The position numbers and the translations under genes were made by a program. Under the pieces are notes generated by a model. That model did no database searches and was not told the origin of the DNA. It saw only the letters and a program-made list of their open reading frames with translations. 19,447 bases of DNA from IMG/VR virus record IMGVR_UViG_2563366807_000009. The stretch is one strand, 5' to 3'. Position 1 is the stretch's first letter. Each line of letters begins with the position of its first letter. Source of the DNA: a virus. Lineage: Duplodnaviria; Heunggongvirae; Uroviricota; Caudoviricetes. Shown here in pieces: positions 5,915 to 18,302 of this stretch.

Positions 5915-6847
5915 CTATTCGATTTTTTTAACCATGTAGTTACGTCGTGATGTTCCTAATCTTTCATTGTGAATCTCAGAAACGCTTACTACGAGCGATA
6001 TTCGTTCACCAACTTTATATTTACTTTGAATTTCTCCTAACATATCAATCGGATAAGAAGCCTTTATTTTTCCAAGCTCGCTTGCAATCTCCAATTTCCC
6101 GTACATGGATAAAATAGCAAGTTCGCCTGATATATGCTCATCCGGTAGCTGAATGACCTTCGTTAAAGCTAAGCGAGCATTCAGTTTTTTTATATCTTCT
6201 GAAGAAATTGACACTTGTCTGGTACCATCACTTAAAGGTCCAATCCAAGTAAGATCAAAGTTAAGACTATATTTTTCGCACTCATTTATGATGTTTTTTA
6301 GGTTAGCTGTTGATTGCGAACCAATTTCGGCAATTTTAGCCGTGAATGTTTCTTCATCAATGGATGAGAGTAGTGCAAAAATCTCCTTAACAGCATGACT
6401 GGATACTGTTTCGATGAGCTCGCAAGAACCAGTAGAAAAAGTAACACCTAACTTCGTCGAACCTGGACGCAAGTCTGCCAATCTCATGTCTAATGATTTT
6501 TTAACATCAATCGGCACACGACTAGAATCTTTCCCAGATCCAAGTCGGTAAACTGCTTTCTGTACAAGGGATGCGAGATTACCTGAAATTACAGATAGAA
6601 TATCTAACGGAATAGACCCGAAATCGACCAAAACACCTTTTAATCTCAACTCCATGAAATCACGTAAAGGATGTTGGTTATCGATTGCACGTTGTCTCTC
6701 TCGGAGATCGCTCAGATGGGAGTCAAGTGATCTAAATATAATGTCATCAGCAAATGATCTCCCCTTATTTTGAGCAAGCAGATCCACATCGCGTTGAATG
6801 AACGCAATTCGCTCCTTGAGGGAGTTGAATGTTTTTTCTTCGCTCAT
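5915..6847 (-). CDS. hypothetical 310-aa protein, second gene of the rex-slot cassette; no family recognised
   Basis: Long ORF whose ATG (6847..6845) overlaps the upstream gene's TGA as ATGA. Visibly AT-rich compared with flanking lambda-like genes. Immediately followed by a terminator. No transmembrane segment or catalytic motif that I can assign. Confidence 0.75.
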   Translation of the reverse strand: MSEEKTFNSLKERIAFIQRDVDLLAQNKGRSFADDIIFRSLDSHLSDLRERQRAIDNQHPLRDFMELRLKGVLVDFGSIPLDILSVISGNLASLVQKAVYRLGSGKDSSRVPIDVKKSLDMRLADLRPGSTKLGVTFSTGSCELIETVSSHAVKEIFALLSSIDEETFTAKIAEIGSQSTANLKNIINECEKYSLNFDLTWIGPLSDGTRQVSISSEDIKKLNARLALTKVIQLPDEHISGELAILSMYGKLEIASELGKIKASYPIDMLGEIQSKYKVGERISLVVSVSEIHNERLGTSRRNYMVKKIE

Positions 6848-7317
6848 AACATTACCCTCACGAGGCCTTTAGGATTCTCCTTCCGATCAAAACCAAACCA
6901 CCCTCTCCAGTAACTTCGCCTTTCACTATAATCGATTTCTGGATGATTTTCAGGCAGCAAAAGAACGTCAATGCTGTAGTTTTCTTTAATAAAATCTCTA
7001 TTTAACAATGAGCTGACCAATGGCATCAGCGTGTTTGGCAAAGAGTTTAGGGCCAAATAATCGACGACCACGAGTATATCTATGTCATCAGGTTCAGGTT
7101 TCTCTGTAGTGAATGAACCATCGATCCACACTTCAGAGAAACATAGACACTGCTGATTAACAAGTTTAAATTGCTCAATAAGCTGTATAAAATTACAGTA
7201 TAGCATACTTCTTCTAACGGATTTTGGGAAGGTGTCGACACAAAGAGACTTGATGCCATCACTATCCATATCATGAAATCCTGCTGTAAGAAGAGGTGGG
7301 AAGCTAGGCTTTTCCAT
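6844..7317 (-). CDS. minimal nucleotidyltransferase-like protein (Pol-beta superfamily signature), first gene of the rex-slot cassette
   Basis: 157-aa ORF 81 bp downstream of the cI stop, AAGGA before the ATG. Contains GSFTTEKPEPDDIDILVVV, i.e. G-S, 9 residues, D-I-D, hydrophobic strand, with a later acidic strand YSIDVLLL. This is the hG[GS]-x9-13-Dh[DE]h pattern of MNT-type nucleotidyltransferases. Confidence 0.75.
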   Translation of the reverse strand: MEKPSFPPLLTAGFHDMDSDGIKSLCVDTFPKSVRRSMLYCNFIQLIEQFKLVNQQCLCFSEVWIDGSFTTEKPEPDDIDILVVVDYLALNSLPNTLMPLVSSLLNRDFIKENYSIDVLLLPENHPEIDYSERRSYWRGWFGFDRKENPKGLVRVML

Positions 7318-7398: not shown

Positions 7399-8088
7399 TT
7401 AACCATGCTTCCTGTACGTCTGCGGCATGCTCCCAATAACCTTACCGAAGATGAACACCCGGTTCATCTCGTCTTTCTCGATCGGGTCCCACGGTGAGTA
7501 GCTTTTGTTATCAGAGATGACCAGCAGCTTATCCTTCATCATTTGCAGGCGCTTTACATGGGCTGTGTCGTCGTACAGAAACGCATAGATACCATCACCG
7601 TCGAAAGATTTAACTGTGATATCAACGAACAGCAGATCACCTGGTTCGATCGTTCCTGACATGCTGTCACCACGCACGTTAATGATGCGGATATTTTCCG
7701 CCTTCCTACCATCGAACATGTGACGAGCATCGTCAAACGAGTACTCAACCGAGCGTAGAACTTCTACAAACTCACGGTTGATGACTCCCGGCCCAGCACT
7801 GACTTCTATATCAAGAACGTCAATCTTGAAGTATTTGGAATGGCTGACAGTTGATTGTATTGGTTGCACTGTACTGTCTGACATATTTCCAACGCCAGAA
7901 GATAACCATTCTGCGCGCACACCCAAAGCGTTCGCGATCTCCACGATTTTAGTTGTTTGATTAGCTTTCCCTGTTTCGATTTTCTGAATAGCAGCCTGGC
8001 TAACCCCGACCAAATCCCCAAGCGCCTTTTGTGTAAGGCCTCGCGCTAATCTGGCTTCTTTAAGTCTTTCTGAGAGTGTTGTTTTCAT
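7399..8088 (-). CDS. cI: CI-like prophage repressor (XRE HTH plus S24 LexA-like autopeptidase domain)
   Basis: Start taken at ATG 8088 (MKTTLSERLKEARLARGLTQKALGDLVGVSQAAIQKIETGK... is the HTH). C-terminal VRGDSMSGTIEPGDLLFVD and AHVKRL supply the Ser/Lys dyad. Not lambda immunity by sequence. The six-frame ORF extends 22 codons upstream into the operator. Confidence 0.85.
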   Translation of the reverse strand: MKTTLSERLKEARLARGLTQKALGDLVGVSQAAIQKIETGKANQTTKIVEIANALGVRAEWLSSGVGNMSDSTVQPIQSTVSHSKYFKIDVLDIEVSAGPGVINREFVEVLRSVEYSFDDARHMFDGRKAENIRIINVRGDSMSGTIEPGDLLFVDITVKSFDGDGIYAFLYDDTAHVKRLQMMKDKLLVISDNKSYSPWDPIEKDEMNRVFIFGKVIGSMPQTYRKHG

Positions 8089-8093
8089 AGTCC

Positions 8094-8166
8094 AAATGTA
8101 CAACCAAGGTTTTATTCCATCAAACGAAAATGGTTGTTGACTAAAAACAACCATAGTTTTAATCTT
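8094..8166. promoter_or_regulatory. OR-like tripartite operator with divergent PRM/PR
   Basis: Three related 17-bp sites spaced about 24-27 bp apart: 8097-8113 (TGTACAACCAAGGTTTT), 8124-8140 (weaker, inverted) and 8144-8160 (AAAACAACCATAGTTTT). TTGACT at 8137-8142 is a -35 for rightward PR. Site 1 lies 9 bp from the cI ATG, suggesting a near-leaderless cI mRNA. Confidence 0.6.
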
Positions 8167-8492: not shown

Positions 8493-9032
8493 ATGCAACC
8501 ACTTCCATACCAACAGACTAGCGGATTTAGCCCGACTGCGGTGATAAATCGTTCTCAAACAAAACAGGTGCCAGGCCACGAAAAAATCCGTGATGCCGTC
8601 CGCGCCTGGTCGGCTGTAGATAATCAGGATGTCGTTGCCACACTCATTGTGAATGAGTATCGGGAGCAGGGCGGCGGCACCATCGATTTCCCTGATGATG
8701 TCAGCCGTGCACGCCAGAAGCTGTTCCGCTTCCTCGATAACAAATTCGATTCTGAAAAATACCGAAATAACGTGCGTGAACTGACCCCGGCAATTCTGGC
8801 GGTACTACCGCTGGAATATCGCGGTTACCTGGTTGAGCAGGATAGCTTCATGGCTAGGTTGGCTGAAATGGAAAAGGAACTCAGTGAGGCAAAACAGGCT
8901 GTCATTCTCAACGCACCACGCCACCAGAAACTGAAGGAAATTAGTGAAGGTATTGTATCGATGTTTCGTGTGGACCCAGATCTGGCTGGTCCATTGATGG
9001 CGATGGTTACTACCATGCTGGGGGCGATATGA
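8493..9032 (+). CDS. YdaT-family protein in the cII position
   Basis: 179 aa with AAGGAG Shine-Dalgarno. Segments EYREQGGG and TPAILAVLPLEYR resemble Rac YdaT as I recall it (EYLRQGGG, IPAILAILPREL). Not lambda cII. Confidence 0.65.
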   Translation: MQPLPYQQTSGFSPTAVINRSQTKQVPGHEKIRDAVRAWSAVDNQDVVATLIVNEYREQGGGTIDFPDDVSRARQKLFRFLDNKFDSEKYRNNVRELTPAILAVLPLEYRGYLVEQDSFMARLAEMEKELSEAKQAVILNAPRHQKLKEISEGIVSMFRVDPDLAGPLMAMVTTMLGAI

Positions 9033-9118
9033 CAGGTTCAGAAATGGCGAAAGCCGGTCTGCTGGAACAGAACCGACTTTCAGGTGCAAATCGTAACACA
9101 CTCATTGCGGGAGGAATT

Positions 9119-10048
9119 ATGGCAAACACTGCTGAGATATTCAATTTTCCAGTGCCGGATGCGGCACAAAAGGAGCCGCGCGTGGCAGATCTCGATGATG
9201 GTTATACGCGCATTGCAAATGAGTTGCTGGAAGCTGTGATGCTGGCCGGATTAACACAGCACCAGCTTCTGGTCTTCCTGGCTGTCATGCGCAAAACATA
9301 TGGCTTTAATAAAAAACTGGATTGGGTGAGCAACGAGCAACTTTCCGAATTGACCGGGATATTGCCGCACAAGTGTTCTGCTGCAAAAAGCGTTCTGGTA
9401 AAGCGTGGGATTCTTATTCAGAGCGGGCGGAATATCGGCATTAATAATGTGGTCAGTGAATGGTCAACATTACCCGAATCAGGTAAGAAAAATAAAGTTT
9501 ACCTGAAAGAGGTAAATTTACCTGAATCAGGTAAGAAAAGTTTACCCAAATCAGGTAAAGGCGTTTACCCGAATCAGGTAAACACAAAAGACAAACTAAC
9601 AAAAGACAATATAAAACCTTTTTCGTCCGAGAATTCTGGCGAATCCTCTGACCAGCCAGAAAACGATCTTCCTGTGGTGAAACCGGATGCTGCAATTCAG
9701 AGCGGCAGCAAGTGGGGGACAGCAGAAGACCTGACCGCCGCAGAGTGGATGTTTGACATGGTGAAGACTATCGCACCATCAGCCAGAAAACCGAATTTTG
9801 CTGGGTGGGCTAACGATATCCGCCTGATGCGTGAACGTGACGGACGTAACCACCGCGACATGTGCGTGCTGTTCCGCTGGGCCTGCCAGGACAACTTCTG
9901 GTCCGGTAACGTGCTGAGTCCGGCCAAACTCCGCGACAAGTGGACCCAGCTCGAAATCAACCGGAACAAGCAACAGGCTGGCGTGACAGTCGGCAAACCA
10001 AAACTCGACCTGACAAACACTGACTGGATTTACGGGGTGGATCTATGA
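9119..10048 (+). CDS. O: replication initiator O
   Basis: From ATG 9119 (GGAGG upstream): MANTAEIFNF...VADLDDGY... with a C-terminal half KWGTAEDLTAAEWMFDMVKTIAPSARKPNFAGWANDIRLMRERDGRNHRDMCVLFRW... matching lambda O as recalled. The N-terminal domain differs. An in-frame ATG at 9029 overlapping the upstream stop is an alternative start. Confidence 0.88.
   Translation: MANTAEIFNFPVPDAAQKEPRVADLDDGYTRIANELLEAVMLAGLTQHQLLVFLAVMRKTYGFNKKLDWVSNEQLSELTGILPHKCSAAKSVLVKRGILIQSGRNIGINNVVSEWSTLPESGKKNKVYLKEVNLPESGKKSLPKSGKGVYPNQVNTKDKLTKDNIKPFSSENSGESSDQPENDLPVVKPDAAIQSGSKWGTAEDLTAAEWMFDMVKTIAPSARKPNFAGWANDIRLMRERDGRNHRDMCVLFRWACQDNFWSGNVLSPAKLRDKWTQLEINRNKQQAGVTVGKPKLDLTNTDWIYGVDL
9470..9583 (+). 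repeat. ori iterons inside O, followed by an A-rich tract
   Basis: Five direct copies of a roughly 19-bp unit TTTACCYGAATCAGGTAAR at 9470-9487, 9498-9516 (degenerate), 9517-9535, 9541-9560 and 9564-9582, then ACACAAAAGACAAACTAACAAAAGACAATATAAAACC. Confidence 0.85.
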
Positions 10049-10746
10049 AAAACATCGCCGCACAGATGGTTAACTTTGACCGTGAGCAGATGCGTCGGAT
10101 CGCCAACAACATGCCGGAACAGTATGACGAAAAGCCACAGGTACAGCAGGTAGCGCAGATCATCAACGGTGTGTTCAGCCAGTTACTGGCAACTTTCCCG
10201 GCGAGCCTGGCTAATCGTGAGCAGAACGAACTGAACGAAATCCGCCGCCAGTGGGTTCTGGCTTTCCGGGAAAACGGGATCACCACGATGGAACAGGTTA
10301 ACGCAGGAATGCGCGTAGCCCGTCGGCAGAATCGACCATTCCTGCCATCCCCCGGACAGTTTGTAGCCTGGTGCCGGGAAGAAGCATCCGTTATTGCCGG
10401 ACTACCAAACACCAGCGAGCTGGTTGATATGGTTTACGAGTATTGCCGGAAGCGTGGCCTGTATCCGGATGCAGAGTCTTATCCGTGGAAATCAAACGCG
10501 CACTACTGGCTGGTTACCAACCTGTATCAGAACATGCGGGCCAATGCGCTTACTGATGCGGAATTACGGCGCAAGGCTGCCGATGAACTGACTTGTATGA
10601 CCGCGCGAATTAACCGTGGTGAGGCGATACCTGAACCAGTAAAACAACTTCCTGTCATGGGCGGTAGACCTCTAAATCGTGCACAGGCTCTGGCGAAGAT
10701 CGCAGAAATCAAAGCGAAGTTCGGACTGAAAGGAGCAACTGTATGA
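10045..10746 (+). CDS. P: replication protein P (DnaB helicase loader)
   Basis: 233 aa, MKNIAAQMVNFDREQMRRIANNMPEQYDEKPQVQQVAQIINGVFSQLLATFPASLANR..., matches lambda P as recalled. ATGA overlap with the O stop. Confidence 0.95.
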   Translation: MKNIAAQMVNFDREQMRRIANNMPEQYDEKPQVQQVAQIINGVFSQLLATFPASLANREQNELNEIRRQWVLAFRENGITTMEQVNAGMRVARRQNRPFLPSPGQFVAWCREEASVIAGLPNTSELVDMVYEYCRKRGLYPDAESYPWKSNAHYWLVTNLYQNMRANALTDAELRRKAADELTCMTARINRGEAIPEPVKQLPVMGGRPLNRAQALAKIAEIKAKFGLKGATV

Positions 10747-11045
10747 CGGGCAAAGAGGCAATTATTCATTACCTGGGGACGCATAAGAGCTTCTGTGCGC
10801 AGGACGTTGCTGCGGTAACAGGCGCAACAGTAACCAGTATAAATCAGGCTGCGGCTAAAATGGCACGGGCAGGAATCTTGGTCGTTGATGGTAAGGTCTG
10901 GCGAACGGTGTATTACCGGTTCGCTACCAGGGAAGAACGGGAAGGAAAGGTGAGCACGAATCTGATTTTCAAGGAGTGTCGCCAGAGTGCCGCGATGAAA
11001 CGAGTGTTGGCAGTGTATGGAGATATGAACTTAAACTTGCTGTGA
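10743..11045 (+). CDS. ren: Ren
   Basis: MTGKEAIIHYLGTHKSFCAQDVAAVTGATVTSINQAAAKMARAGILVVDGKVWRTVYYRFATREEREGK... matches lambda Ren as recalled. The last few residues diverge, marking a mosaic junction. Confidence 0.88.
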   Translation: MTGKEAIIHYLGTHKSFCAQDVAAVTGATVTSINQAAAKMARAGILVVDGKVWRTVYYRFATREEREGKVSTNLIFKECRQSAAMKRVLAVYGDMNLNLL

Positions 11046-11293: not shown

Positions 11294-12796
11294 TTAAATT
11301 GCATCTGCAAACTCTGGGGTTTTTCGCTCAGGTATAATTGATGAGTTGCTGTTGTCACTTTTTTTATTTTCATGATTACGAATAGCCAATGACTCATTAA
11401 AGTCTTTTGCGACTGCTGTCTCAATAAATTCAATTTCTGAATCAGAGTGTTTTTTAACAGCTTCTTTGATCTCATCCAGAGTAACATAGAAAAACTCTTT
11501 TCTACGATTTACAAGATTGACTCTCTTTTTATCGAAGACATCATGTAGTTTTTTTTCTAATGATGGAGCGTCCTCCGAATAAATCATGGCATGTACATCA
11601 AAAATAAAAGGAACAGATGCATCACCGAGCTCATTTACACGGTCTTGCGGATCAAGACGTCGTGTCATGCCTATTTTATAAACATTCTCCCCAAAAGAAC
11701 CTATGTTCGAAATAATATAAACATGACCTTGTTTGGTTTGTTGTGCCATGGATAATGCTCTTTGATGCTTTGATTCAGCCTGCGACAAACTCTGTTCTAG
11801 TTCGGCAATGCGATTTTCGAGGCGCTGCTTCATGTCACCAGTAACTTTTTCCATTTCCTTTCTTGCAGCTTCAATTGCTTTTTTATAACGGCGCTCTTCT
11901 GCCTCTGCGTCTTGCATGGCCTTTTCTATTTCTCGTTGTGCACGCTCCTCCTCTCTCATTTGTGCCCTTATTTCTGCCTGTTCTTCTTTTTCTTTCTGTT
12001 TTTGCTCACGATATTCATGGGTAAGCCACAATTCCTCAAGTTTTTTATTGAGGTATTTAGTGTTTATATATATGTGATTTTGCTCGTTTAGTTTATTTAT
12101 GGCCTCAAATGCCTTTGTGATGCGTTCTTCCATTTTAGTGATGTTTTTCCACGTGCAATTGCTAATTGCAGCATCACATTCATTATTAAATGCTCTAGTA
12201 GTTAGCCTGATATTTCTGTCTGTCATTTTTTTACCCTCTGCTCGAGAGCCTTCAACAGTCCATTGGGTTGTACAATATACTGCGCCAGAGTGGGTTTTAT
12301 CCCGCAGCATTAATTTCTGTTCATCCCTGATGGATTTTATTTTGTTTTTAAATTGCTCTGAATCTTCAAAATTAAAATGAGGTTCGTAAAATCCTAGTTC
12401 GGCTAGCTCAACATCTTCTGAATAAATAGAAATTTGCCTTACTAGTTTATCATATATTTCTTTCTTCTCTTTATAAGTTCTTCTTAGCTCTTGGATTTGT
12501 TTATTGATACCATCCATTTTTTCAATGGTGTTTGTTAGTTCATTATTGGCATTTTCTTTTACTTTTAGGGATTCTTCTTTTATTATGGAGCATTCTTGCT
12601 CTGTTTTCTCAATAAGCTTCTTACATTCTTCTTCTACATTAAAATAATCTGCAAAGCGAGATTTGTATTCTTCATTTTTTTGATTGCTATCACTTAATTC
12701 TAATTGTATTTTTTTGATGCGTTTGATTGCAGCTATATAAAGAACAAGAACAACCAATAAAAATATGATTGCAAGTAATAGAGGAGTTTGAGTCAT
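11294..12796 (-). CDS. membrane-anchored coiled-coil protein with C-terminal GIY-YIG/T5orf172-like nuclease domain; candidate anti-phage defence protein
   Basis: 500 aa, strongly AT-rich, convergent with ren. N-terminal hydrophobic helix (LLLAIIFLLVVLVLYIAAI), long E/K/R-rich predicted coiled coils, C-terminal GHVYIISNIGSFGENVYKIGMTRRLDPQDRVNELG...E, i.e. GIY...YIG...R...E spacing. AAGGAA Shine-Dalgarno before the ATG. Confidence 0.85.
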   Translation of the reverse strand: MTQTPLLLAIIFLLVVLVLYIAAIKRIKKIQLELSDSNQKNEEYKSRFADYFNVEEECKKLIEKTEQECSIIKEESLKVKENANNELTNTIEKMDGINKQIQELRRTYKEKKEIYDKLVRQISIYSEDVELAELGFYEPHFNFEDSEQFKNKIKSIRDEQKLMLRDKTHSGAVYCTTQWTVEGSRAEGKKMTDRNIRLTTRAFNNECDAAISNCTWKNITKMEERITKAFEAINKLNEQNHIYINTKYLNKKLEELWLTHEYREQKQKEKEEQAEIRAQMREEERAQREIEKAMQDAEAEERRYKKAIEAARKEMEKVTGDMKQRLENRIAELEQSLSQAESKHQRALSMAQQTKQGHVYIISNIGSFGENVYKIGMTRRLDPQDRVNELGDASVPFIFDVHAMIYSEDAPSLEKKLHDVFDKKRVNLVNRRKEFFYVTLDEIKEAVKKHSDSEIEFIETAVAKDFNESLAIRNHENKKSDNSNSSIIPERKTPEFADAI

Positions 12797-13104
12797 TCGT
12801 GCTATTCCTTACGGACAATTTAAGACGTTTTGTATTAAATCCTGTTCAATGTGTATGCGGGTGATTGCTACCGCTTACAATCTTCATAATTATCAGTTAG
12901 ATAGACTCGCTAGTAAATAATTTCATTTTTTGCAATATTCTTATTGAATATTTCAATTTATGAAATGAACTCTTTATCCTTTCAAGGTGAAAGGTTTCTT
13001 CTTCGGAAATATTTGCTCTCGTGTGACGTATAAAGACCTTTGATTTTCAAAAATCAGTAGGGAATAATATAGTTACTGTCGGCCTGAACACCCGGTGGTG
13101 GGGT

Positions 13105-13196
13105 TGCGCTAAACGGGGACGTTTATGCGCACACACAATCCAAACTCTCATCTCCATTCACAGATGCAGAAATGCACCTACGATTTTTTACATTCG
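13105..13196 (+). repeat. direct repeat copy A (about 92 bp)
   Basis: TGCGCTAAACGGGGACGTTTATGCGCACA... is identical over the first 29 nt to 15039 onward and shows only a few mismatches thereafter. Contains a 10-bp bulged hairpin GCGCTAAACG/CGTTTATGCGC with a GGGA loop. Confidence 0.85.
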
Positions 13197-13341
13197 GTGT
13201 TTTACTTCGACAGCCAGAATTGGGAGTCTCTATTCGTCTGGCGGCTAAAGGTGATATGGAAATCGTTATGTTTTGGCCTGAGGTAGTTGTAACTGTTGTA
13301 GCAGCTATGGATGTGATCATCATGGTGTCCATTTACTGGGG

Positions 13342-13452
13342 TTGACGACATGATTTATCCGGCGCTATATTCTGTGCGTTGCCGCAAAATCGGCACACGG
13401 GATTGGCGTCCCGGGATACTACTCAACGCATACCGCGTTAAGCGGTTTTTTT
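13342..13452 (+). ncRNA. candidate short terminated transcript (sRNA or attenuated leader) upstream of the Bro-N gene
   Basis: TTGACG (13342-13347), 18-bp spacer, TATATT (13366-13371). Downstream, a GC stem ACCGC/GCGGT with GTTAA loop (13432-13446) runs into a T tract to 13452. The region between is GC-rich and self-complementary. No ORF. Confidence 0.3.
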
Positions 13453-13608
13453 GTGCGCTAAGCACGGCTATGCCCAAATTATGGTGGGCTGTGTGAGGGC
13501 TTCTTCGGAAGCGCCGGGTTTGAGTAGCCGGTTACGCCAACCTTACACAGTTCACCACCAGTCGATTGGCGTCGTTGGTGGTGATGGTTAACCTGATGAG
13601 GTGATACT

Positions 13609-14217
13609 ATGACTACTCAATTAGCATTCCACAAAACGACGTTTACCCCGATTTGCCACAATAACAGAATTTGGCTTACTGCCACTGAAGTTGGTTTAGC
13701 ACTGGAATATGCGGACGATAAAGCAGTTCAGCGCATTTACTCTCGGCACTCAGATGAATTCACAGATATGATGACAAGGGTGGTCAAAGTGACCACCCCT
13801 CGTGGAATGCAGGAGTCTCGAGTATTTAGCCTTCGCGGAGCCCATTTGATCGCCATGTTTGCTCGTACTCCTGTGGCCAAAGAATTCCGCCGCTGGGTTC
13901 TGGATATTCTCGATCGAGAAGTTCAACAATCCCCAATCACAAAACAATTCACTGATAACGAACTTTGCACACTCGCCTGGTTATGGCGAGCAAGTGATAC
14001 GATGTTAACCGCCTGCCAGAACGTTACGCCCCTTCTTCAGGTCGCAGAGCATCGCGAAGCAGGTAGATTCACTTCAATCGAACAAGAATATCCTCGGATA
14101 CTCAACAGGGCGCGAGAAATCCTTGCCAGAGAAACGGCGCATGTAAAATTCCAACCGTGGCAGGATGATAAGTGGAGTCGTGTGTTACCATATTTCCGTC
14201 AGAATCTGTTGCAATAA
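13609..14217 (+). CDS. Bro-N domain antirepressor-like protein
   Basis: 202 aa, GAGGTG Shine-Dalgarno. N-terminal IWLTATEVGLALEYADDKAVQRIYSRHSDEF...RVFSLRGAHLIAMFARTPVAKEFRRWVLDIL fits the Bro-N/antirepressor pattern as I know it. Confidence 0.75.
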   Translation: MTTQLAFHKTTFTPICHNNRIWLTATEVGLALEYADDKAVQRIYSRHSDEFTDMMTRVVKVTTPRGMQESRVFSLRGAHLIAMFARTPVAKEFRRWVLDILDREVQQSPITKQFTDNELCTLAWLWRASDTMLTACQNVTPLLQVAEHREAGRFTSIEQEYPRILNRAREILARETAHVKFQPWQDDKWSRVLPYFRQNLLQ

Positions 14218-14236
14218 AGTCACTAGTTAGAAATAC

Positions 14237-14277
14237 TGCCAGCATTCTGCGATGACGGAAGTGCTGGCATTTTTTTT
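14237..14277 (+). terminator. Rho-independent terminator after the Bro-N gene
   Basis: 8-bp stem TGCCAGCA/TGCTGGCA (14237-14244 and 14262-14269) followed by eight T residues (14270-14277). Confidence 0.7.
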
Positions 14278-14452
14278 GGTAATGTGCGAGTCCATTTCAT
14301 AAAATACGGGTACTGGAACTGGACGATATAATCTAAAAGATACCATTATCAGTAGCATTAAAATCGCTATGTGCCGATACGGATATAAATTATATTGATT
14401 GTTCACATACCTTATTGGATATTACTGAGGGGTGTTTATATAAGGTGTAACG

Positions 14453-14962
14453 ATGATGTGGAACTTTGACAGTGCCGACTTAAGTGCAATAGCAGCAGGC
14501 ATTTCTGCGTTTGGCACATTAGCCGCAGCGGGGTCGGCGCTTGCAAGTTGGTGCACGTCAAAAAAAGCGCTGCAGCTACAAAATAGAGTTTACCTTTATG
14601 AGTCTTTAAAGGCTTGCGCTGAGAGAGCCAATTCATCAGCTAAAGATAAGCGCGGATCTGAATGGAGCGTTAATGATGCAGCGGATATCATCAGGTGCCT
14701 AGTACGGGCGATGGAGCTCATCAAGCAGGATAGCCAGCAGAAAGAAGGTAATCAGGCATTAATGTTGAAACAGTACTTTGTTAATCTGCTAATAATGGAA
14801 CTGTACGAGGAAGTTCATAACGGTGATGCGGCTGATTCTGTTTTTAAAAGTACGGAACCTACACAAGTACTTGATAACTTATGGAGCAAATGGCAGGAGG
14901 CTATAGCTTTTTTTGATATTTGGAATTACCCAGTTGCGACTGAGGAAGACTTGGCAGACTAA
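14453..14962 (+). CDS. hypothetical protein with N-terminal hydrophobic anchor (169 aa)
   Basis: AAGGTG Shine-Dalgarno. An N-terminal hydrophobic stretch of about 25 residues (LSAIAAGISAFGTLAAAGSALASW), remainder hydrophilic. Own promoter region after the upstream terminator. No family recognised. Confidence 0.7.
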   Translation: MMWNFDSADLSAIAAGISAFGTLAAAGSALASWCTSKKALQLQNRVYLYESLKACAERANSSAKDKRGSEWSVNDAADIIRCLVRAMELIKQDSQQKEGNQALMLKQYFVNLLIMELYEEVHNGDAADSVFKSTEPTQVLDNLWSKWQEAIAFFDIWNYPVATEEDLAD

Positions 14963-15038
14963 TTTTCAGCACATTTGATTTCCAATAATCAACCAGCCAT
15001 AATCATGCCATTGGAGCTTGAACAACTCCGGTGACTTC

Positions 15039-15130
15039 TGCGCTAAACGGGGACGTTTATGCGCACATACAATCCAAACTCTCTTCTCCCTTCACAGATG
15101 CAGAGATGCACCTGCGATTTTTTGCATCCA
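15039..15130 (+). repeat. direct repeat copy B, immediately upstream of ybcN
   Basis: Same unit as 13105-13196, including the bulged hairpin. Ends 26 bp before the ybcN GTG start. Confidence 0.85.
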
Positions 15131-15156
15131 GCGTTTGACCTCTGCGGAGGTGAAGC

Positions 15157-15612
15157 GTGAACCTCCCACAAGACGGCATCAAATTGCATCGTGGTAACTT
15201 CACCGCTATCGGCCAGCAGATCCAGCCTTATCTGGAGGAAGGCAAATGCTTTCGCATGGTGCTTAAACCGTGGCGTGAGAAACGCAGTCTTTCCCAGAAT
15301 GCACTCAGCCACATGTGGTACAGCGAAATCAGTGAATACCTCATCAGCAGGGGTAAAACGTTCGCCACTCCAGCTTGGGTAAAAGATGCTCTCAAACACA
15401 CATATCTCGGTTATGAAACCAAAGACCTGGTTGATGTCGTAACCGGTGAGATCACCACTATCCAGTCGTTACGCCATACCTCCGATCTTGATACCGGAGA
15501 GATGTATATCTTCCTGTGTAAGGTTGAAGCCTGGGCGGTGAATATTGGCTGCCACCTGACTATTCCGCAGAGCTGCGAGTTCCAGCTGCTGCGCGACAAG
15601 CAGGAGGCGTAA
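15157..15612 (+). CDS. ybcN: YbcN-like nin-region protein (reported DNA base-flipping protein)
   Basis: 151 aa from a GTG start with GGAGGTG 5 nt upstream. The sequence [62 protein letters not shown]... and its length match DLP12 YbcN as recalled. Confidence 0.85.
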
Positions 15613-17219: not shown

Positions 17220-18302
17220 TTAGAACTGGTAAACCAGACCTACAGCAACGATGTCATCAGTATCAATACCAGCTGTTTTGGTAAACTTACTATCGTCAAT
17301 TAAGTTGATTTTGTAATCAACAAAAGTGGACATGTTTTTATTAAAGTAGTAAGTAGCACCGACATCGACATACTTGACTAAGTCTCGGTCACCATGAACA
17401 CCAAGGTCTTTACCTTTTGACTGAAGGTAAGCAACAGATGGGCGCAGACCGAAGTCAAACTGATATTGTGCTACTGCTTCAAAGTTTTGTGCTTTGTTTG
17501 CAATATGGTTATTACCAAAAACGGTCATATTCTGAGTTTCAGAATATGTGGTAGCCAGATAGATATTGTTCGCATCATATTTCAGGCCTGCAGCCCATAC
17601 TTCCGCATTTTTGCCGGAGGCATTGAATTTGCTCTTACCATAGGCGACCTGACCGTCAGTGCGATCTGATTTAGCATAGGTTGCACCCACGCCGAATCCT
17701 TCATACTCATAAGTAGTGGAGAAACCGAAACCATCACCATTGGCTTCAGTTACGTCAGTGCGGTCATTTTTACCCTGATACTGAGCAGCAAAGTTCAGGC
17801 CATCGACCAGACCAAAGAAGTCGTTGTTACGATAAGTTGCAACACCAGTAGTGCGACCAGTCATGAACACATCTGTTTGGGTCCAGGTATCACCACCGAA
17901 TTCTGGCAGGACGTCAGTCCACGCACCGATGTCGTATGCTACACCGTAGTTACGGCCGTAATCGATTGAGCCGTAATCACCAAATTTCAGGCCTGCAAAT
18001 GCAAGACGGGTTTTGTCTTTGGAAGAACCTTGAGATTCAGCGCGGTTGCCTTTGAATTCATATTCCCACTGACCGAAACCAGTCAGTTGATCGTTGATTT
18101 GGGTTTCACCTTTGAAGCCAAGACGGGCATAAGTAGTATCACCATCATCTGCATCATTAGAGGAGAAGTAGTGCTTAGCATTAACTTTCCCGTACAGATC
18201 CAGCTTGTTACTGTCTTTATTATAAATTTCAGCTGCCTGAGCAGACATCGCCATCAGTACTGATGCAGCTACAGCAGAAATTGCCACTGTTAATTTTTTC
18301 AT
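17220..18302 (-). CDS. nmpC: outer-membrane porin, OmpC/OmpF family (NmpC/Lc-type), apparently intact
   Basis: 360 aa with signal peptide [29 protein letters not shown], porin hallmarks and C-terminal ...VAVGLVYQF. Uninterrupted here. Confidence 0.93.

Follow-up and report, generated by a model that had tools for sequence, protein, structure and literature searches.

The window analysed here, a stretch of 19,447 nucleotides (nt) of tailed-phage DNA (IMG/VR record IMGVR_UViG_2563366807_000009), is a DLP12/lambda-like Escherichia coli prophage that adjoins a tRNA gene at 654–727. Between two copies of the nin leader it carries an antirepressor-type gene and, downstream of it, a gene for a protein of 169 amino acids (aa), referred to here as orf169. 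We read this insert, with a probability of about 0.6, as two independent cassettes: an RNA-controlled antirepressor of the P1 immI/Gifsy-1 isrK type (cassette 1, 13342–14277) and a separate accessory gene (cassette 2, about 14200–14970). The region is identical to that of Escherichia phage PhiR26_1 and, at 99% or more, to that of 103 complete E. coli genomes. Loci used for comparison are cited by L numbers where they need to be told apart.

Regulatory RNAs upstream of the antirepressor gene

The antirepressor gene is preceded by a promoter-like site and a series of RNA elements, which are as follows.

13342–13371, + strand: isrK promoter-like site, TTGACG-18-TATATT, 10/12 match to consensus, with its 3′ edge some 8 nt ahead of the IsrK 5′ end
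13380–13452, + strand: IsrK small RNA (sRNA), Rfam RF01394, 58.7 bits (gathering threshold 50)
13477–13562, + strand: C4-type antisense RNA, Rfam RF01695, 74.8 bits (gathering threshold 45), full-length model, fold of −42.9 kcal/mol
13481–13591, + strand: leader open reading frame (ORF) of 36 aa, in the position that orf45 has in Gifsy-1, phrog_20442 (5.5e-9)
13564–13620, + strand: translation-initiation region of the antirepressor, with b2 at 13564–13573, GATTGGCGTC, and a2 at 13612–13620, ACTACTCAA, the latter being codons 2–4
13609–14217, + strand: antirepressor-type protein of 202 aa, with an ATG start and a GAGGTGA Shine-Dalgarno sequence 4 nt upstream

A first-pass annotation, made by a model from the letters of the window, had described the 202-aa and 169-aa ORFs, and both are present at exactly the coordinates it gave. 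Its naming of the upstream gene as a Bro-N antirepressor is supported by Pfam and PHROG: a Bro-N domain covers residues 17–100 (E 4.4e-10, 40.5 bits, cutoff 25.6), and antirepressor families match the protein (phrog_245, 2.8e-56). A P22_AR_C domain, which the annotation did not mention, occupies residues 110–180 (E 1.7e-17, 63.7 bits, cutoff 22.4), and RefSeq names the product 'P22AR C-terminal domain-containing protein'. The same annotation had treated the gene as a plain member of the early operon; instead, it appears to be controlled by an IsrK/C4 RNA switch that has a promoter-like site of its own and begins about 270 nt before the point from which the Bro-N region had been counted. The regulatory RNAs that, judging from their sequences, belong to the gene (13342–13591) had escaped that first reading.

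The isrK promoter-like site has the best consensus score within 12700–15300 and corresponds in position to PisrK of the Salmonella prophage Gifsy-1, the driver of isrK-orf45-anrP (PMC4825925). Within IsrK lie two target or decoy sites, b1 (13401–13410, GATTGGCGTC) and a1 (13418–13426, ACTACTCAA), which are exact repeats of b2 and a2, respectively, and b2 and a2 are placed on either side of the Shine-Dalgarno sequence (13598–13604) and the ATG (13609). C4 carries the complements of both pairs: b′ (7 nt complementary to b1 and b2) is the single-stranded stretch ACGCCAA at 13534–13540, which follows a′ (8 nt complementary to a1 and a2), the loop of hairpin 2 at 13520–13527, TTGAGTAG. The 3′ terminator of IsrK (13432–13452), which a scan lists as a hairpin at 13432–13446 with a T run, is weak, with a 5-bp stem, −7.9 kcal/mol and a U7 run, and is thus compatible with read-through. 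The leader ORF begins at the ATG conserved in the 5′ strand of C4 and ends 17 nt before the antirepressor ATG; translation of such an ORF and its coupling to the next gene have been demonstrated in Gifsy-1 only (PMC4825925).

An Rfam scan of 12800–15300 returned no match, even at E ≤ 5, to isrJ, which follows the antirepressor in Gifsy-1. IsrJ-family matches are found in two prophages that carry orf169 homologues (L005, 8682–8752; L006, 9567–9643, directly 3′ of the Q antiterminator gene).

Covariation of the pairing sites points to IsrK as a decoy arm

The isrK and C4 tandem precedes a gene start in nine other phage loci and in Gifsy-1, most such genes being of antirepressor type, and these loci served as the comparison set. 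The same b2/a2 geometry recurs at the initiation region in the nine other phages. The a′ loop is variable between loci, with at least seven versions distinguished by eye, and its complement is present in the IsrK and in the initiation region of the same locus. Quantitatively, the longest exact complement of the a′ loop averaged 7.2 nt in the cognate IsrK and 8.3 nt in the cognate initiation region, as against 3.8 and 4.6 nt in non-cognate partners, and the cognate locus was the best or tied best in 9/10 rows for IsrK and in 10/10 rows for the initiation region. Moreover, in L011 and L014 the b′, b1 and b2 sequences change in concert, and the duplex between the C4 core and IsrK reaches −31.7 kcal/mol, compared with −17.5 ± 3.4 kcal/mol for shuffled sequences, none of 500 shuffles being as strong. 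The RNA elements, their complementarity and their covariation are direct observations, and the three-way covariation indicates that the IsrK family represents the a1b1 decoy arm of a C4 system.

Several results count against assigning the antirepressor to such a system. The match to the dedicated Rfam model c4-a1b1 (RF03163) at 13365–13417, on the 5′ half of IsrK, is sub-threshold (39.6 bits, E 6e-8; gathering threshold 46.7). The a2 duplex taken alone is no better than shuffled sequences (−18.2 versus −13.0 ± 3.2 kcal/mol), and the full matrix of duplex energies between C4 cores and targets separates cognate from non-cognate pairs poorly, being too noisy because conserved CCGG stems dominate it; in its place, cognate specificity was judged by the exact-complement test limited to the a′ loop. 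Since the energy matrix does not discriminate and the a2 duplex is unremarkable, covariation is the main evidence. The leader ORF varies widely in length across loci (8, 15, 15, 33, 35, 36, 36 and 64 aa, or fused in frame to the downstream gene), and the leader peptide itself is probably not the conserved unit. Finally, the 202-aa protein was considered as an orthologue of AnrP (STM2616) and rejected, as BLASTP gave E 0.003 over residues 1–59 only and the domains differ; the target and activity of the window antirepressor are therefore extrapolated.

Among the loci examined, genes of four kinds follow the RNA cassette (Bro-N with P22_AR_C, ORF6N with P22_AR_C, ORF6N alone and Bro-N alone); to judge by these junctions the cassette is portable, being joined to at least three antirepressor architectures. 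By DNA similarity, the isrK–C4 cassette is found in 223 phage records, mostly of Shiga toxin (Stx) 1- or Stx2-converting phages, and the two Stx-phage loci examined have it in the nin region, past ninE, with an antirepressor gene following. A further peculiarity of these genes is that several otherwise unrelated isrK–C4 antirepressors begin with MTTQ (ATG-ACx-ACT-CAA), namely those of the window (13609–13620), L004, L011 and Gifsy-1 (L027). In the window, the MTTQ codons are the a2 target of C4; elsewhere a2 falls on the Shine-Dalgarno sequence, and MTTQ is still kept.

To judge by its domains, the target of the window antirepressor could be the cI-like repressor of its own prophage or one encoded by a different prophage. 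The resident cI is LexA-like, so an antirepressor would add an SOS-independent route of induction, or act on other prophages. Domains of the Bro-N, ORF6N and KilA-N types are DNA-binding modules and cross-action of antirepressors on other prophages is known, which lends some credit to the alternative that the protein is a DNA-binding regulator, or an antirepressor for heterologous prophages only and not for the resident cI; P22_AR_C is, on the other hand, the C-terminal domain of the assayed P22 Ant, which speaks against this alternative. We consider this alternative doubtful. It would fit with the S24 autoprotease domain that the resident cI already has for SOS induction, with our finding neither a solved structure of a Bro-N/P22_AR_C relative nor an assayed orthologue, and with the description of Gifsy antirepressors, in the part of PMC4825925 that cites its ref. 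26, as inactivating lysogenic repressors. It is opposed by the antirepressor-type genes that follow most of the isrK–C4 tandems examined, and by the Gifsy-1 equivalent, which induces its own prophage (PMC4825925).

Comparative data place the 169-aa gene in a cassette of its own

Downstream of the antirepressor gene, three features define the second cassette.

14237–14277, + strand: intrinsic terminator behind the antirepressor gene, with a stem of 13 bp, −18.6 kcal/mol and U8
14395–14423, + strand: promoter-like element of the 169-aa gene, TTGATT-17 nt-GATATT, with TGGATATTA invariant
14453–14962, + strand: 169-aa orphan protein, phrog_1779

The strong terminator and the AT-rich spacer of about 170 bp that the first-pass annotation placed between the two genes are both there: the terminator, which a simple scan overlooked because of its long loop and bulge, was recovered by folding, and the spacer (14278–14452) measures 175 nt at 34.9% GC, compared with 45.3% for the window. 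The annotation had further proposed that the 169-aa gene is independently expressed, a proposal strengthened by a promoter-like element, TTGnnT-17-GATATT with the invariant TGGATATTA, that is conserved in five loci having different upstream genes, and by 66 genomes in which the gene accompanies an antirepressor fragment. Taken from these sequence comparisons, expression of the gene on its own is likely.

The 169-aa gene was found in 181 of 5,426 complete E. coli genomes. In 112 of the 181 it accompanies the full antirepressor module, and in 66 it lies behind the ybcK recombinase gene and a 3′ fragment only of the antirepressor gene; the fragment in E. coli O104:H4 has an internal stop. The 169-aa ORF is intact in both of the fragment-type loci examined (L025 and L026) out of these 66 genomes. 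The same two loci, from E. coli O104:H4 2009EL-2050 (L025) and a second genome (L026), are DLP12-like and carry emrE and ybcK, in L026 also ylcJ, between ren and the antirepressor fragment. In K-12, the place of the fragment and orf169 is presumably taken by ybcL-ybcM.

Phage genomes divide the insert at different points. IdasGreatGrand shares 13105–14199 with the window (repeat, isrK, C4 and antirepressor) and then has unrelated DNA up to 14971, whereas PhiR5_1 shares 13831–15300 (the C-terminal half of the antirepressor, the spacer and the 169-aa gene) and has a different antirepressor N-terminus and no isrK or C4. More distant homologues of the 169-aa gene occur in variable early regions of lambdoid prophages that have no antirepressor (L006, L007, L009, L021 and L023). 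In L006, L007 and L009 the homologue directly precedes NinB or DUF1367 and follows DUF551 or unknown genes; in L023 it lies between the replication genes and DUF1367, with a pyocin S gene and other genes before DUF1367; and in L021 it is in the pL operon between N and xis/int. A scan of GTDB genomes with the narrow alignment of the family gave one locus. A 171-aa ORF beside the L021 homologue was tested as a paralogue of the 169-aa gene and is not one.

These arrangements bear directly on whether the antirepressor and the 169-aa protein form one co-transcribed functional unit. The two genes are adjacent and co-directional in the 112 E. coli genomes and in PhiR26_1, and PhiR5_1 pairs a variant antirepressor with the 169-aa gene, as a unit would predict. 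The strong terminator and the 175-nt spacer stand between them, however, IdasGreatGrand has the antirepressor without the 169-aa gene, and no intact antirepressor accompanies the 169-aa gene in the five lambdoid loci and the 66 E. coli genomes. By this comparison the one-unit explanation is largely refuted, and we hold it to be highly improbable; the comparative context likewise rejects the idea that the 169-aa protein works as a partner of the antirepressor. The 169-aa gene is, on the same comparative grounds, best described as a cassette separate from the antirepressor.

A second question is in which phase of the phage cycle the gene acts. It may be expressed additionally, or solely, during the lytic cycle, given that relatives sit inside early operons with a short gap. 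Under one possible, if somewhat doubtful, explanation, the 169-aa protein would be an early lytic accessory, active in membrane host takeover or in counter-defence and expressed from pR by N-antiterminated read-through of the terminator. Consistent with this, the homologues in the five lambdoid loci are co-directional within early operons, 70–100 nt after the preceding gene, the L021 homologue being inside the pL operon. The conserved promoter-like element directly upstream in five loci with different upstream genes argues against it, as do the strong terminator ahead of the gene and the retention of the gene in 66 genomes beside an antirepressor fragment, a pattern that suggests a benefit to the lysogen. 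Of the marks of a moron, a self-contained insert with its own promoter, its own terminator and a deviant base composition, the 169-aa gene has a conserved promoter-like element; no clear terminator was found between the gene and the nin leader, and its GC content is close to that of the window.

Two observations favour the lytic explanation and at the same time detract from the reading of cassette 2 as an independently expressed accessory gene. The promoter-like element is absent in four diverged loci, where the gene sits within an early operon, and the GC content of the 169-aa gene (44.5%) equals that of the phage backbone (45.3% for the window). A further point against that reading of cassette 2 is that the promoter-like element matches the consensus at only 8/12 positions, which is weak, so its promoter activity is inferred.

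A conserved orphan protein with a probable membrane anchor

The 169-aa protein matches phrog_1779, a family annotated as of unknown function, over its full length (1.7e-102), and this is its only PHROG match. In agreement with the earlier statement that it lacks a recognisable domain and has one hydrophobic anchor at the N terminus, searches of Pfam, NCBIfam and PADLOC gave no match, and one hydrophobic stretch is seen at residues 12–30. Pfam searches of all 28 family members returned scattered single weak matches only, a profile search of the sequences in the Protein Data Bank (PDB) with the family found nothing below E 0.27, and no publication turned up in literature searches under its accession, PHROG number or phage names. 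The family is small: clustering at 90% identity leaves 14 groups, and among 1.8 billion proteins there are 34 representatives at the 50% level, from variable early regions of lambdoid prophages in enterobacteria. It evolves under purifying selection, with nonsynonymous divergence (dN) of 0.17–0.43 against diverged homologues and synonymous divergence (dS) saturated. Judged by family matches for the Bro-N gene and by dN/dS for the 169-aa gene, neither ORF is due to chance.

A hydrophobic segment of about 20 residues is present in 28 of the 28 family members, preceded in most by an acidic flank and followed in nearly all by a basic one, so the predicted topology is N-out/C-in. The N-terminus is short and usually acidic, with a conserved Trp, and the segment is rich in Ala, Gly and Ser, with small residues recurring on one face of the helix. 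A conserved RAN..KGK..W..D.ANI core follows the helix, and many members end in an acidic D/E-D-L-x-D tail, TEEDLAD in the window protein. In the AlphaFold model (built on a 28-sequence alignment; mean predicted local distance difference test score, pLDDT, 84.9), residues 7–63 form one helix, in which the Ala/Gly/Ser-rich part (about residues 10–33) continues into a long stalk, and a small helical bundle follows. These features suggest that the protein is probably anchored in the inner membrane, with its N terminus outside and its C-terminal part in the cytoplasm.

The anchor is not a strong one on either scale applied, and this favours a competing explanation, in which the N-terminal helix is a soluble oligomerisation helix or a releasable segment resembling a signal-anchor-release (SAR) sequence and the protein is soluble. 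The Kyte-Doolittle mean over 19 residues is a marginal 1.59 (family range 1.5–2.5), and the Hessa scale sums to +2.7 kcal/mol for the window protein and is positive for most members. The continuous helix modelled over residues 7–63 and the small residues on one helix face would also suit such a protein. We nevertheless find this explanation unlikely, as the segment is present in every member, its flanks obey the positive-inside rule, and one member, P0041, has additional segments, clearly hydrophobic, ahead of the conserved helix.

For the protein we favour, as a tentative proposal of rather low probability, a function at the membrane that benefits the lysogen, such as exclusion, for which the first-pass annotation had named it a candidate, because the gene is kept beside a decayed antirepressor, has its own regulatory element and stands in a defence-rich neighbourhood. 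In its most specific form, likewise doubtful, phrog_1779 would be an undescribed single-gene inner-membrane exclusion or abortive-infection factor, expressed from its own promoter, acting at the cytoplasmic face through its helical domain and acidic tail, and occupying a ren–ninB hotspot together with SNIPE. Besides the weak hydrophobicity, with which the helix could be soluble, two negative results tell against an exclusion role: structure searches returned generic helical bundles only, and no similarity to known exclusion or defence families was detected in PHROGs and PADLOC. In the other loci examined, SNIPE is not annotated beside the homologues.

The nin-leader repeat and neighbouring genes

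The genes and repeats that frame the two cassettes are the following.

7399–8154: cI-like repressor, LexA-like, HTH_3 and Peptidase_S24
9029–10048, 10045–10746 and 10743–11045: replication genes O, P and ren, respectively, from the RefSeq annotation of the identical E. coli locus
11294–12796, − strand: full-length PD-Lambda-1/SNIPE gene, PADLOC 1.9e-198, DUF4041 and T5orf172/GIY-YIG
13039–13208, + strand: nin-leader repeat, upstream copy, with promoter-like TTGATT-17-AATAAT (13040–13068), a ribosome-binding site and the first 26 or so codons of an ylcH/orf33-like ORF
14974–15160, + strand: nin-leader repeat, second copy, with promoter-like TTGATT-17-CATAAT (14975–15003) and repeat core D1 at 15039–15142
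15157–15612: ninB/ybcN, from the RefSeq annotation of the identical E. coli locus

The RefSeq annotation confirms the earlier placing of the two genes between the replication and nin regions. The direct repeat of the nin leader, about 170 nt in all, encloses the entire isrK–antirepressor–orf169 insert; its core, D1, comprises 104 nt (13105–13208 and 15039–15142) at 89% identity. The second copy contains an intact ylcH/orf33 (15059–15160; RefSeq coding sequence WP_001309322) that leads into ninB/ybcN. Both copies were placed in a four-way alignment with phage 82 and L006, and the phage 82 record (X92588) annotates putative −35 and −10 sequences, a possible regulator-binding site and orf33 at the nin leader. 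Both copies also have a small hairpin and a T run. In other lambdoids, the DNA between the repeat matches shows no homology to the module; the annotation under the match is an esterase gene. The duplicated leader is a possible recombination site for the exchange of cargo.

The SNIPE/PD-Lambda-1 gene lies between ren and the isrK module; it has a low GC content (35%) and its product a hydrophobic N-terminal stretch. The SNIPE protein, a membrane-bound nuclease, cleaves phage DNA as it is being injected (PMC13190303). A candidate defence pair, PDC-M63 (5915–7317, − strand; M63B 4e-42, M63A/DUF6932 7e-43 in PADLOC), stands beside the cI-like repressor. That is the place taken by rexAB in lambda. 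The tRNA gene (654–727, Rfam 72.1 bits) lies beside the integrase gene (746–1909, − strand), and its anticodon loop reads UCU by eye; we take it to be an argU-like tRNA-Arg gene, on the strength of that reading, which would make it the prophage attachment site as in DLP12. An OmpC/NmpC-like porin gene (17220–18302, − strand), named porin OmpC by RefSeq in the identical E. coli locus, lies 3′ of the Q antiterminator gene (quuD), and such porins are typical lysogenic-conversion genes of the DLP12 type.

Proposed mechanism and significance

We propose the following model for cassette 1. Transcription would start from the promoter just upstream of isrK, and most transcripts would stop at the weak IsrK terminator, yielding the short IsrK sRNA. 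Transcripts that read through would carry C4, the 36-codon leader ORF and the antirepressor mRNA, and the a′ and b′ loops of C4 would pair with a2 and b2 around the Shine-Dalgarno sequence and codons 2–4, keeping the antirepressor translationally silent. The b1 and a1 sites of IsrK would compete for C4, or remodel the leader, such that a rise in IsrK would turn translation on. The Bro-N/P22_AR_C protein would then bind a phage repressor, possibly the LexA-like cI of the prophage itself or the repressor of a second prophage in the same cell, leading to induction without SOS cleavage. The corresponding steps have been established in Gifsy-1: read-through of the IsrK terminator produces a translationally silent mRNA, IsrK supplied in trans switches on translation of anrP by way of orf45, and the prophage is then induced by AnrP (PMC4825925). 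An IsrK-dependent translational switch and induction by the antirepressor, shown only in that system, would operate in the window by analogy. From cassette 2, a membrane-anchored protein that has an acidic tail and a helical domain in the cytoplasm would be produced from its own promoter-like element.

By this analogy, an antirepressor wired to an RNA switch would give the prophage a RecA-independent route of induction, which could answer physiological signals or allow cross-talk between prophages, and which matters for the induction of Stx phages. About 2–3% of complete E. coli genomes carry this allele. The antirepressor half belongs to a known, IsrK/C4-controlled kind, in which a known switch type is here joined to a different antirepressor; its interest is moderate and comes mainly from the many Stx-phage cassettes. 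As for the 169-aa gene, it is a true conserved orphan that has a regulatory element to itself and lies next to a proven defence gene; so far nothing marks it as a new mechanism.

Comparison with known systems

The 169-aa protein resembles the exclusion proteins (lambda SieB and RexB, HK97 gp15 and T4 Imm) and SNIPE in being a small protein with an N-terminal membrane-type helix; like exclusion genes, its gene lies in a variable region of a temperate phage, and it adjoins a proven membrane-bound defence nuclease (PMC13190303). It differs from all of these in having no sequence or profile similarity to them and no nuclease or other catalytic domain. The antirepressor shares with P22 Ant the C-terminal P22_AR_C domain (E 1.7e-17) and membership of PHROG families annotated as antirepressor Ant, whereas no P22_AR_N domain was found in it, and its control would be by IsrK and C4 rather than by Mnt, Arc and sar.

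The closest parallel in organisation is isrK-orf45-anrP-isrJ of Gifsy-1 (Salmonella; Hershko-Shalev et al. 2016, PMC4825925). Both loci have, in succession, a promoter, IsrK with a leaky terminator, a C4-like RNA and leader ORF about 25 nt further on, and an antirepressor-type gene whose initiation region holds complements of the C4 loops. In the two loci, Rfam finds isrK, c4-a1b1 and C4 in identical order, C4 of Gifsy-1 falling where PMC4825925 puts orf45/STnc1160, and in both the leader ORF ends shortly before the antirepressor start. The differences lie in the antirepressor itself (ORF6N in AnrP; Bro-N with P22_AR_C in the window), in the position of the module (after Q in Gifsy-1; before ninB in the window) and in the element 3′ of the antirepressor (the isrJ sRNA in Gifsy-1; a protein gene in the window). 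The a2 site of the window also stands apart, covering codons 2–4, whereas in most other loci examined it is on the Shine-Dalgarno sequence.

The immI region of phages P1 and P7 (c4-icd-ant) offers the counterpart at the level of RNA pairing. P1 is a plasmid prophage with C1, whereas the window is a lambdoid prophage with a LexA-like cI; the a1b1 segment of the window has its own terminator and would yield IsrK as a distinct sRNA; an icd homologue is lacking, the leader ORF overlapping C4 itself; and the antirepressors are unrelated in domain content as far as tested. Nevertheless, in both systems a C4 RNA (RF01695) comes from the same transcript as its target, and two of its loops are complementary to upstream a1/b1 sites and to downstream a2/b2 sites at the translation start that controls the antirepressor. 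Between P1 and P7, specificity is set by co-varying a and b sequences, and the a and b sequences of the isrK–C4 loci compared here co-vary in the same way.

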